Assembly: GCF_003790525.1 (NCBI RefSeq)
Contig: NZ_CP033635.1
Direction: 5' to 3' (one strand)
Origin: Escherichia coli
GTDB taxonomy: Bacteria; Pseudomonadota; Gammaproteobacteria; Enterobacterales; Enterobacteriaceae
Length of the DNA stretch: 64,000 nucleotides
The notes under the pieces were generated by a model that saw nothing but the letters and a program-made list of their open reading frames with translations, was not told where the DNA came from and did no database searches. Shown in pieces: positions 58,097 to 60,703 of this stretch; position 1 is the stretch's first letter, and the number at the start of each line of letters is the position of its first letter. Both the position numbers and the translations under genes were made by a program.

Positions 58097-58166
58097 TTTG
58101 GAGCATAGTGTAAGATGAATAAATATCTACGGTATTAATAATAGACTTTGTAAGAAATTATTAAGT

Positions 58167-59354
58167 CTATATTGCATTTAAAAGGTCGTAATCATACGTA
58201 TAGTCCTCTCTGGTAAAATATTGCTTCTCTGAGTTATAAGCTTCATATGTGTTATATTTTACGACCTCAAAGCAATTGTCATGAGAATTTTCGTCTTTCT
58301 CTAGTGTATTATCTGAAAGGAATTCCTCTGAGCTAGAATCCTCTATGTTTAAATCTGTATTGTAATTAATTTTTGGAACGATTAGATAAGCATTTTCTTT
58401 GACGCTTTCATAATCTTTAATGATTATATCGATGTAATAATCTATTTTTTCTAATGAGAATGCTTTCATCTCTGGTAATTTAATTCTGTTCAAGTAATTG
58501 TTAATTTTCGATGAGCTTTTATATATTTCTTTTGTTAATTCATTTTCTAATTCATCTGTTAGAGTTGCTCTTGGTATAGATTCTATAATTGCAAGTCTCA
58601 TAATTTTTAATTGTTCTTCGGTAATATCTCCAAGCGCATTTAAACAACTTTCGACAAGCTTAATTTTTTCTTCAGAATACATATCGTTAATGCTTGTTAT
58701 AACAGGCGTTATTTTTAGTAAATAATCCCATGAGATTGTGGCGTTTTGTTTTGAACTAACGAAATTTACCTGAAACATGTTGGCATTAGTAAAATCTGTG
58801 TCATCCAATTTAAAAGGATTTAAAATTGTATTGGCCATATGTTTATCTGTAAAATCATAAAGTTCTAAATCGACATTCCGTAAGTCCAGAGAGGATAGAT
58901 CAACTATACCTCCAGTCCCACAACTAAAGATTACGTTCAACCTCCTGATTTCATTGTAAATGTCTTTCAATGGGCAATTAACATTGATATTGCCTGTGGA
59001 TATTTCCTGGTTTTTTAACGGTTCATTAATTGTAAGTTCACAGGTATTGTCTGATCGTTGGATAATTCGGGCGTTATAACCAAAAAAATCCATACGAAGA
59101 GACGAATCATTATAAAGAATTACATTTTGTAAGTACGCTAATTCTTTTTGAAAATCACCAGTGATAATGCATTTCCCACCTGGTTGTAACGCGTTAAGTA
59201 AAGTGACCATTTCAATAGAGGTCTGTTTTAGTTTTTCTATACCTGGTGCTAGTGCTTCGAGGTTATTAACTATGGGGCTTTCAGGAAGATCATTCATTTT
59301 TCGACGGACTAAATCACTACTAATATCATTACCAATTGATGAAACAGGGAACAT
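58167..59354 (-). CDS. yhaC: Protein of unknown function YhaC (AT-rich gene)
   Basis: 395-aa ORF MFPVSSIGNDISSDLVRRKMNDLPESPIVNNLEALAPGIEKLKQ...; N/K/I/E/Y-rich composition, low GC. Confidence 0.8.
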   Translation of the reverse strand: MFPVSSIGNDISSDLVRRKMNDLPESPIVNNLEALAPGIEKLKQTSIEMVTLLNALQPGGKCIITGDFQKELAYLQNVILYNDSSLRMDFFGYNARIIQRSDNTCELTINEPLKNQEISTGNINVNCPLKDIYNEIRRLNVIFSCGTGGIVDLSSLDLRNVDLELYDFTDKHMANTILNPFKLDDTDFTNANMFQVNFVSSKQNATISWDYLLKITPVITSINDMYSEEKIKLVESCLNALGDITEEQLKIMRLAIIESIPRATLTDELENELTKEIYKSSSKINNYLNRIKLPEMKAFSLEKIDYYIDIIIKDYESVKENAYLIVPKINYNTDLNIEDSSSEEFLSDNTLEKDENSHDNCFEVVKYNTYEAYNSEKQYFTREDYTYDYDLLNAI

Positions 59355-59375
59355 TATTTTATCCTTTATAAATAA

Positions 59376-59915
59376 TCAATAAAAATAATTATTAAAATGA
59401 TCGGGTGAAAAAAAGAGAATTTGCCAACAATCTGAAGTAATGCTGGTTTTATTAAAGTGCGCAGGAGGTGTTAAGATGGCTTCTTTTCGGGTGAATTTTG
59501 CACAATACTTAGAAATCGTCTCCTTAATACATTCCAGCTCTTTTTTATTGACGGCTGAGCAAATACATTGTTCACCAAAAGGTGCAAAAGTGCCTACATC
59601 TAATGTTTGTATGATATAATCGTCATGTTCTCCTGTAGAAATATCTATGATGAATGGACTCATATTTTCCGGTTGGATTCGGATCATGACAGAAGGAATA
59701 TCGCCTTGATAGAAATTCAATGCAGTAATTGCAGATAATACTCTCCGCAGTTCATTACTTATACTGTATATTTTATTAACGTCATTGGTGGAGACAATTT
59801 CTGCAAACTTTCTTTTTACCGTCCAATAATCAATATTTCTGTTGTGATTGTTAACCACTGCGTGCATTGGCGGGATTGAAGGGTGAAAAATATGTGCAAT
59901 TGGGAAGCCTTTCAT
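59376..59915 (-). CDS. yhaB: Protein of unknown function YhaB
   Basis: ORF extends to 59975 (199 aa); start at 59915 (MKGFPIAHIFHPSIPPMHAVVNNHNRN..., 179 aa) chosen from memory of the K-12 protein length; start uncertain. Confidence 0.55.
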   Translation of the reverse strand: MKGFPIAHIFHPSIPPMHAVVNNHNRNIDYWTVKRKFAEIVSTNDVNKIYSISNELRRVLSAITALNFYQGDIPSVMIRIQPENMSPFIIDISTGEHDDYIIQTLDVGTFAPFGEQCICSAVNKKELECIKETISKYCAKFTRKEAILTPPAHFNKTSITSDCWQILFFSPDHFNNYFY

Positions 59916-60170
59916 TGATGCCTGCCTTGTCATCATGACAAACAATAATAGATGCTTATTTTCCTCGCACGGCACTTTCGCACTATCAAAAAACGCTCAT
60001 TTACCCGGCATTACAGTAAACGAAGCAACATTCTGTGGCCTACGCCGATCAAAAGCTCTGTGAAAATTCCCCTTGTTGTCTTTGGCTGACCTTATCGCGG
60101 CGACCAGCAATTATTCGTTTTGTGATCCTCAACACAAAATGCTATTCGTCACCTATGAGGGGAGAAGAAT

Positions 60171-60389
60171 TTATGGAAAACGATTGCATTCACAAAATGA
60201 CGTCCTGTCATGAGGGAGAAAGTTGACGTTAATCAATTGTTCGAGATGATCAATACCTGTATTCGAAATTTTAAAATATTGATAAAATAAATGTTTGTTC
60301 TCCAACAAATAGCGTGAAAAAATGTGACGTGCCGCATTATTTATCGCTGAAAATGGTTTATTTATAATAAAATTTGAGAACTTGCTCAT
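60171..60389 (-). CDS. tdcR: Small tdc-operon regulatory protein TdcR
   Basis: 72-aa ORF MSKFSNFIINKPFSAINNAARHIFSRYLLENKHLFYQYFKISNTGIDHLEQLINVNFLPHDRTSFCECNRFP, divergent from tdcA; the ORF continues upstream in frame to 60527 (118 aa). Confidence 0.55.
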   Translation of the reverse strand: MSKFSNFIINKPFSAINNAARHIFSRYLLENKHLFYQYFKISNTGIDHLEQLINVNFLPHDRTSFCECNRFP

Positions 60390-60619
60390 TAAATTTAACT
60401 CAAATTTTGCCTGGTAATTATCCGGTAATTGCTTGAAATATGGTCTCAGCCCCTTTTTTGTATTAACCACATAACGAATGATGTTATCGCCATAAAATAT
60501 GGTTATCCCCGTCATTTTTTTTGACAAAAATCAGGGTTTATGCTGATTTTTATACTTTAACTTATTGATATATAAAGATATTTAATTGAAATAACGATGC
60601 CCTGGAATGTATTGAAAGT

Positions 60620-60645
60620 TAATTTGTGAGTGGTCGCACATATCC
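60620..60645. promoter_or_regulatory. Putative CRP site in tdc promoter
   Basis: TGTGAgtggtcGCACA (60625-60640) resembles TGTGA-N6-TCACA, in the AT-rich region about 70 nt upstream of tdcA ATG. Confidence 0.45.
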
Positions 60646-60703
60646 TGTTCATTTCATTTTGATACACTTCATGCCGTCAATGAGGTAATTAACGTAGGTC
60701 GTT

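Follow-up and report, generated by a model that had tools for sequence, protein, structure and literature searches.

Pentapeptide-type effectors exist in Salmonella and in enterohemorrhagic Escherichia coli (EHEC), while Qnr and MfpA are almost wholly beta-helix and about 200 amino acid (aa) residues in length. The present study deals with yhaB and yhaC, which belong to the remaining E. coli K-12 genes without an assigned function, in a 64-kb stretch of the E. coli contig NZ_CP033635.1 (hereafter, the window). They lie between the RNase P RNA gene rnpB and the tdc operon. An annotated operon, H-NS binding, a predicted foreign origin, and CRP and FNR sites are already known for this locus. The yhaC region was classed as predicted-foreign, is bound by H-NS in all chromatin immunoprecipitation (ChIP) data sets, and is listed as a "promoter island", and the tdcA/tdcR spacer is likewise listed as an H-NS-bound promoter island (PMC3661553). 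What is added here is the exact limits of the insertion, the setting apart of tdcR, the depth of the orphan status, the allele structure, the frequency of loss, and a pentapeptide-repeat segment in YhaC. In the best overall explanation, to which I give a probability of roughly 0.55, yhaB-yhaC is an Escherichia-specific foreign two-gene operon encoding a scaffold protein, YhaC, and its partner, YhaB.

An earlier note, made from the sequence alone, described the DNA between the rnpB repeats and tdcA as markedly AT-rich, and this was borne out. The G+C content of positions 58115 to 60700 is 0.332, versus 0.509 for the whole window. In 1-kb windows (standard deviation 0.050), the minimum of 0.303, the lowest in 64 kb, lies inside this segment, and every 1-kb stretch elsewhere has a G+C content of at least 0.375. 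The G+C content at third codon positions is 0.27 for yhaC, 0.31 for yhaB, and 0.32 for tdcR, below that of the neighboring garK and garR (0.52–0.54) and tdcA and tdcB (0.43–0.45).

Is the whole AT-rich block a single acquired islet beside rnpB, as was claimed in the same note? The orthologous garK loci of Salmonella enterica, Citrobacter rodentium, and a third enterobacterium (GarK 91% identical) were compared. All three loci retain garK-rnpB followed by the tdc operon, and tblastn detected nothing similar to YhaB or YhaC at these garK-rnpB-tdcA loci. Between the tdcR stop codon and tdcA, the window DNA aligns with the DNA preceding Salmonella tdcA (67% over 517 nt) and with C. rodentium DNA (70% over 482 nt), with several invariant blocks, and the homology with Salmonella ends at about position 60175. 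The C. rodentium equivalent of this tdcR/tdc control stretch likewise has only 35% G+C. The Escherichia-specific insertion is the DNA from about 58113 to 60170, comprising yhaC, yhaB, and 255 bp upstream of yhaB, with the rnpB terminator repeats on one side and the ancestral tdc control region on the other. Since the DNA of the tdcR part is alignable upstream of tdcA in Salmonella and C. rodentium, positions 60171–60703 (tdcR and the tdc control region) are ancestral AT-rich DNA outside the insertion. The idea of an acquired islet thus holds for yhaB-yhaC, absent from the three syntenic loci, and fails for the tdcR part (from about 60171) and for the block as one unit. The supposed signature of an islet at a stable-RNA gene was not recovered either; there is no integrase ORF (open reading frame) at the insertion, and a repeat search revealed no copy of the rnpB 3′ part near 60170 that would flank the insertion like an attachment site, nor was any other mobility signature seen. 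Thus, the foreign origin is argued from base composition and phyletic absence only.

The features of the locus are as follows. The gene annotation is that of RefSeq for E. coli strain SC516, whose bases match the window from 57400 to 60800 with one mismatch, in yhaC.

56391–57536, plus strand: garK (gene order from RefSeq and the ORF list)
57569–57945, plus strand: rnpB, RNase P RNA, class A (Rfam RF00010, 318.6 bits, E 1.4e-104; RefSeq agrees)
57896–58112, plus strand: two ~114-nt rnpB 3′ repeats (repeat families D1 and D2)
58113–58133, plus strand: degenerate start of a third rnpB repeat (family D2 copy, 71% identity)
58167–59354, minus strand: yhaC, 395 aa (NCBIfam NF007262, 865.7 bits)
58743–58907, minus strand: pentapeptide-repeat segment of YhaC, residues ~150–204 (register reading and profile search)
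59376–59915, minus strand: yhaB, 179 aa by the RefSeq start ("protein YhaB")
59916–60170, minus strand: upstream region of yhaB, part of the Escherichia-specific insertion (Salmonella homology ends at ~60175)
60171–60389, minus strand: tdcR, 72 aa (NCBIfam NF008507)
60223–60236, minus strand: FNR-type site inside the tdcR ORF (sequence reading)
60390–60703, no strand assigned: AT-rich tdcR-tdcA intergenic control region (alignment across three species)
from 60704, plus strand: tdcA (gene order from RefSeq and the ORF list)

The coordinates and gene sizes agree with those given before (YhaC of 395 aa, YhaB of about 180–200 aa, and a small TdcR ORF). The yhaB ORF has 199 aa when read from an upstream GTG located 20 codons before the RefSeq start (59916–59975), and some database entries use an intermediate ATG start (MTRQASMKG...). 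The tdcR ORF has 118 aa when read from a TTG. The yhaB gene precedes yhaC by 21 bp on the same strand, and the two presumably form one operon. Promoter and terminator scans of the locus gave nothing above the shuffled expectation.

The left context of the AT-rich islet is rnpB, and an Rfam search of 56500–62000 with a permissive threshold found no RNA family besides rnpB. Each ~114-nt repeat is closed by a GC-rich hairpin and a T run. A terminator-like site was called in the first repeat (57953–57980), and the identical hairpin sequence occurs again at 58069–58092. The degenerate repeat at 58113–58133 is the left edge of the AT-rich segment. Across strains, the spacing between the yhaC stop codon and rnpB varies from 107 to 726 bp. 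This range implies that the number of terminator repeats goes from one to about six; there are two in the window strain. The rnpB 3′ flank takes other mobile DNA elsewhere, such as an integrase island at another locus (L003). In C. rodentium, the interval from rnpB to the tdc control region (L017:11165–14857) holds tor-like genes for a NapC/NirT-type cytochrome c and a molybdopterin oxidoreductase; the same rnpB-tdc intergenic site is used independently in that genus. As for the rest of the window, a milder G+C dip (0.37–0.40) was seen at 9200–9700, covering the start of a 552-aa membrane-protein ORF (9595–11253) and the DNA just before it, and a second mild dip at 52600–53400, about 2 kb upstream of the garR ORF.

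Are the two inserted ORFs real genes? Among 14 intact E. coli yhaC alleles, the ratio of nonsynonymous to synonymous diversity (piN/piS) was 0.31 for yhaC and 0.21 for yhaB. Against the most divergent allele, at a synonymous divergence (dS) of 0.55–0.63, the ratio of nonsynonymous to synonymous divergence (dN/dS) was 0.31–0.38 for yhaC and 0.24–0.26 for yhaB, and that of the flanking garR, garK, tdcA, and tdcB genes was 0.00–0.06. The constraint on yhaC is strongest in codons 101–160 (dN/dS 0.05–0.15) and weakest in the acidic tail, which is nearly neutral (up to 0.77 against the divergent allele). The yhaB and yhaC genes are real protein genes under purifying selection.

Full-length yhaC was found in 4,314 of 5,426 complete E. 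coli genomes. In a spread sample of 40 rows, a ~105-bp remnant was all that the eight low-coverage rows contained, and the same is probably true of most of the ~1,090 genomes left, about 20% in all. A two-part deletion has left ~103 nt from the start of yhaB fused to 63 nt of yhaC (L002:3190–3356), and the eight low-coverage rows are all alike in this. In one deletion-type genome, fragments of the yhaB 5′ end and of yhaC persist between rnpB and tdcR. Thus, the deletion is secondary. The deletion-bearing strains look like extraintestinal pathogenic E. coli or B2 lineages, which they probably are. Among 17 sampled genomes with the full region, five carry an inactivating change: two have a frameshift in yhaC, two a frameshift in yhaB, and one an IS5-family insertion sequence (IS) in yhaC; the two yhaB-frameshift genomes share an identical yhaC. 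An ISKpn26 element of the IS5 family was found in the 3′ end of yhaC of a raw-milk isolate (L029:3523–4888).

The intact alleles fall into two common types, window-like and K-12-like, with 91–92% DNA identity, and mosaic alleles change type once or twice along yhaC. A third allele at the same locus, with an identity of 77–78% in DNA and 64% in protein, was seen in 19 complete genomes and also in records labeled Escherichia sp. The dS of yhaC between the common types is 0.20, versus 0.06–0.13 for the flanking genes. The yhaB-yhaC pair can be dispensed with and is often lost, and its polymorphism is unusually high, with mosaic alleles produced by recombination. A published scan of E. coli listed yhaC as one of its 14 strongest signals of positive selection (PMC9110714). 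Because of the recombination among yhaC alleles, this result needs a recombination-aware re-test.

The pair might be a functionless remnant of an old acquisition that brings no benefit, is silenced by H-NS, and decays slowly. The deletion in about 20% of genomes and the frameshifts or IS in 5/17 sampled carriers would follow from this, as would a dN/dS that is 5–10 times that of the flanking genes, the documented H-NS binding (PMC3661553), and the fact that no phenotype was found in a literature search. However, dN/dS stays at 0.2–0.4 over a dS of up to 0.6, and the ORFs are intact down to the 64%-identical alleles, indicating long-term selection on the YhaB and YhaC proteins. Both ORFs are intact in most carriers, and codons 101–160 of yhaC are too well kept (0.05–0.15) for mere decay. 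A functionless remnant is therefore unlikely, though it deserves some weight.

How far does the orphan status of the two proteins extend? An exhaustive HMMER profile search of 1.84 billion cluster representatives returned one full-length YhaC cluster and its fragments. All other matches cover only residues ~140–210 and are canonical pentapeptide-repeat proteins, and no full-length YhaC relative was found outside Escherichia in these representatives. The generic repeat apart, no relatives of YhaB or YhaC were found in about 15 billion predicted proteins, and word-indexed protein searches gave only matches named Escherichia or Shigella. By tblastn, phages yielded no relatives of YhaB or YhaC, and among plasmids only four records matched, one of them an E. 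coli record of 354 kb and the other three of chromosome size, being E. coli chromosomes of 4.8–4.9 Mb that are filed as plasmids in PLSDB. A scan of GTDB species with two peptide patterns, which makes a weak negative only, yielded only two E. coli-like contigs with yhaC, which are mis-binned in metagenome-assembled genomes of Collinsella and Bacteroides. By these searches, YhaB and YhaC are restricted to Escherichia. A literature search found no functional study of yhaB or yhaC and no recorded phenotype.

Scans of YhaC, YhaB, and TdcR with Pfam, NCBIfam, PADLOC, and PHROGs gave only self-named families and sub-threshold noise. The impression that YhaB and YhaC have no recognizable catalytic domain stood up in these four libraries and in the PDB. 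YhaC is not wholly without known features, since its residues ~150–205 are pentapeptide repeats. YhaB is a protein of 179 aa with an isoelectric point (pI) of 6.6 and five conserved Cys residues. A precomputed Pfam family, PF27690 (UCP004546), is assigned to every YhaB cluster and to the called gene at the locus L004. The Pfam scan itself returned nothing for YhaB, and neither did NCBIfam, PADLOC, or the PDB. AlphaFold2 on a shallow YhaB alignment gave a predicted local distance difference test (pLDDT) score of 42, with a low-confidence alpha-beta-beta-beta-alpha-beta-beta order, and fold searches with this model returned only self-matches or noise.

A two-gene, AT-rich, fast-evolving cassette that is polymorphic in presence and absence might be an anti-phage defense or toxin-antitoxin-like module at a variable chromosomal spot. 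The evolutionary pattern is of a conflict type, and the rnpB 3′ flank hosts other mobile DNA, as described above for the integrase island and the tor-like genes. However, neither protein has a match in PADLOC-DB 2.0 even at an E-value of 1, no nuclease, ATPase, nucleotidyltransferase, or other effector domain was found, and no phage or plasmid relatives came up. Moreover, the locus holds diverged alleles of one pair rather than alternative systems. Such a module is improbable here.

The NCBIfam model NF007262 covers residues 1–395 of YhaC at 865.7 bits against a cut-off of 765. YhaC has a pI of 4.5 and lacks a hydrophobic segment. It is composed of a conserved N-terminal part, the pentapeptide segment, a predicted helical region (~207–325), and an acidic variable tail (~326–384). 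After this indel-bearing tail, the protein ends with the conserved motif YTYDYDLLN. The first ten residues and the terminal YTYDYDLLN are nearly invariant even in the 64% allele. A pentapeptide-repeat segment was taken to be at least 8 tandem five-residue units in register with a central L or F; YhaC residues 150–199 make up ten consecutive in-register units of the A(D/N)(L/F)XX type whose center is L, F, or M. By BLASTP, YhaC matched one canonical, cyanobacterial-type pentapeptide protein with 37% identity over 78 aa (E 1e-10). With PF00805 and PF13599 of Pfam, significance was not reached; the best Pentapeptide_4 i-Evalue was 0.058, and no allele scored below 0.057. In the AlphaFold2 model of YhaC from a shallow alignment (mean pLDDT 32), the pentapeptide segment was modeled as coil. 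The searches detected no relative of the N-terminal ~145 residues, of the helical region, or of the acidic tail. Searching the PDB by sequence and profile gave only weak matches to pentapeptide proteins and to the LinB C-terminal domain (E 0.01–0.7).

Pentapeptide repeats in a strongly acidic protein with an acidic tail recall DNA mimics of the Qnr/MfpA type, so that YhaC might protect or inhibit topoisomerase or another DNA-binding enzyme; a Gene Ontology label, "response to DNA damage", was also quoted (PMC9110714). However, the repeats occupy only ~55 of 395 residues, or about 2.5 coils, and the PDB search gave no significant match to Qnr or MfpA chains. DNA mimicry of this type is thus very improbable.

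The repeats might also point to a relic effector of a type III secretion system (T3SS). YhaC would be of the PipB2/SopA/EspX kind, with YhaB as its chaperone, both left behind where secretion systems decayed. The operon is AT-rich, lineage-specific, and bound by H-NS, and its upstream gene is small, all of which fits this view, and so do the Ser-rich and invariant N-terminus and the conserved C-terminal Tyr-acidic motif of YhaC, the low-confidence alpha-beta-beta-beta-alpha-beta-beta order of the YhaB model, as far as such a model can be used, and the report of yhaC among the top positively selected genes (PMC9110714). In addition, a decayed SopA-family pentapeptide gene, yjbI, persists in K-12. 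The similarity to YjbI, however, covers only the repeats, and it is weaker (E 0.001; hhalign probability 3.4%) than that to cyanobacterial-type repeats (E 1e-10). No effector family of the SopA/EspX/PipB2 type in NCBIfam or Pfam matched YhaC, and YhaB has no Pfam match to a chaperone family, CesT included, and is not acidic (pI 6.6). The ygeG-ygeH genes of E. coli type III secretion system 2 (ETT2) are present in 3,579 genomes versus 4,314 with yhaC, so that this part of ETT2 is missing from at least ~700 carriers, and purifying selection continues in T3SS-less lineages. An effector origin is quite unlikely. Two narrower candidates were rejected. YhaB as a class I T3SS chaperone of the CesT/SycE type was dropped for the lack of a CesT-family match and of an acidic pI, and the co-distribution with yhaC gave no support for a link to ETT2. 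The annotation of K-12 yjbI itself (L031:4704–6284) is that of a SopA-family protein with a frameshift and with pentapeptide-type repeats.

When might yhaB-yhaC be expressed? A near-consensus CRP site, TGTGTtgaggaTCACA, lies at 60121–60136, inside the inserted DNA upstream of yhaB. This site was reported to be bound by CRP in vitro and was assigned to yhaB (PMC12871828). An FNR-type site, TTGATtaacGTCAA, lies at 60223–60236 within the tdcR ORF, ~310 bp upstream of yhaB, and an FNR ChIP-chip target labeled "yhaB" has the same motif (PMC1802558). Peaks of the RpoS and RpoH holoenzymes in SELEX (systematic evolution of ligands by exponential enrichment) were reported inside yhaB (PMC5493296). Since the DNA is bound by H-NS, yhaB-yhaC is presumably silent in laboratory culture. 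The binding sites and the H-NS occupancy suggest a silent operon that is inducible under the same anaerobic, catabolite-derepressed conditions as tdc.

The tdcR gene requires a separate consideration. TdcR scores 169 bits with NCBIfam NF008507 (cut-off 100). In Salmonella (L016:11087–11433) and C. rodentium (L017:15126–15389), the equivalent frame contains three to four stop codons, although the DNA is 67–70% identical. Within E. coli, dN/dS of tdcR is 0.7–1.2 from a few sites, and a deletion-type strain has an internal stop in tdcR (L002:3612–3830). Judging from these alignments, the tdcR reading frame, unlike its DNA, is not conserved outside E. coli. The tdcR gene may be a young ORF that arose in old control DNA and is specific to E. 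coli; alternatively, the reported activator effect is mediated by the DNA. Some sequence blocks of the tdcR-tdcA spacer are identical in E. coli, Salmonella, and C. rodentium. In an evolution experiment in the mouse gut, recurrent IS5 insertions and a point mutation arose in the tdcA/tdcR spacer, reaching a frequency of up to 65% (PMC7518454). These mutations are consistent with selection for relief of silencing.

How might the two proteins work? My best guess, which remains tentative and is weaker than the overall explanation, is a scaffold-partner mechanism. YhaC would be a soluble, acidic, non-enzymatic binding scaffold, in which a short pentapeptide beta-helix and the acidic tail may offer an interaction or mimicry surface, and the strongly conserved N- and C-terminal tips may dock partners. 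The co-transcribed YhaB would be a partner or a regulator of YhaC. The pair might be expressed in the gut, where silencing by H-NS would be relieved under anaerobic conditions with high cAMP, and might serve a niche-specific, conflict-type, possibly antagonistic interaction rather than housekeeping. The ten repeat units, the pI of 4.5, the lack of a hydrophobic segment, and the lack of an enzymatic domain in five libraries speak for a scaffold, as do the peak of constraint in codons 101–160, the nearly neutral tail, and the termini kept in the 64% allele.

Several points weigh against this explanation. Neither experiment nor homology speaks to the function of YhaC and YhaB, and an undetected catalytic domain in an orphan protein such as YhaC does not prove that there is none. 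In fact, YhaC residues 238–316 show a sub-threshold similarity to the C-terminal domain of the LinB nucleotidyltransferase (E 0.04–0.08). Both AlphaFold models (pLDDT 32 and 42) are unusable, and the fold searches gave self-matches or noise. The YhaB-YhaC interaction is drawn solely from the operon arrangement and the joint divergence, and the expression conditions are deduced from binding sites rather than from transcript measurements. Frequent loss would equally result if a useless acquisition were slowly decaying. The earlier note singled out this segment as a place to look for unrecognized biology; none is demonstrable at present. It is quite unlikely, but conceivable, that the pair is an unrecognized Escherichia-specific module for interaction with a host or a phage, in which YhaC would be an adaptor with pentapeptide repeats, its invariant N-terminal tip and C-terminal Tyr-acidic motif serving as signals for export and target docking, and YhaB its escort. 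In that case, the pair would be an old recombining polymorphism kept by conflict-type selection and switched by CRP and FNR in the anaerobic gut after H-NS silencing is lifted.

The scaffold-partner explanation aside, the view of the locus has to be corrected in two respects: the AT-rich block consists of an insertion and old tdc control DNA, and the tdcR frame is not conserved beyond E. coli. Being selected, restricted to Escherichia, and lost in roughly a fifth of strains, yhaB and yhaC are reasonable candidates for a niche-specific interaction function.

In comparison with known systems, YhaC resembles the pentapeptide-repeat proteins (PF00805 and PF13599; Nostoc Np275/Np276, PDB 2j8k) in residues ~150–204 only. 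The repeats make up 14% of YhaC, and nothing in those proteins corresponds to its N-terminal ~145 residues, its helical region, or its acidic tail. YhaC shares with Qnr and MfpA the pentapeptide repeats and the negative charge, whereas it differs from them in architecture and length and matches them in sequence only through the generic repeat. Like the YjbI/SopA-family relic, yhaC is AT-rich and decaying in many strains, and its product is rich in N, I, and K with beta-helix-type repeats followed by a helical region; yjbI and yhaB are both listed as FNR ChIP targets of unknown function (PMC1802558). Unlike YjbI, YhaC has no HECT-like domain and no match to the family hidden Markov model, and the similarity between the two spans 84 residues at 25% identity. 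Lastly, the locus resembles the H-NS-silenced promoter islands of K-12 in its low G+C content and predicted foreign origin, yhaC and the tdcA/tdcR spacer being two of the 78 islands (PMC3661553). The promoter-island label covers a state of the DNA rather than a protein function, and the tdcR/tdcA part is ancestral, not acquired.

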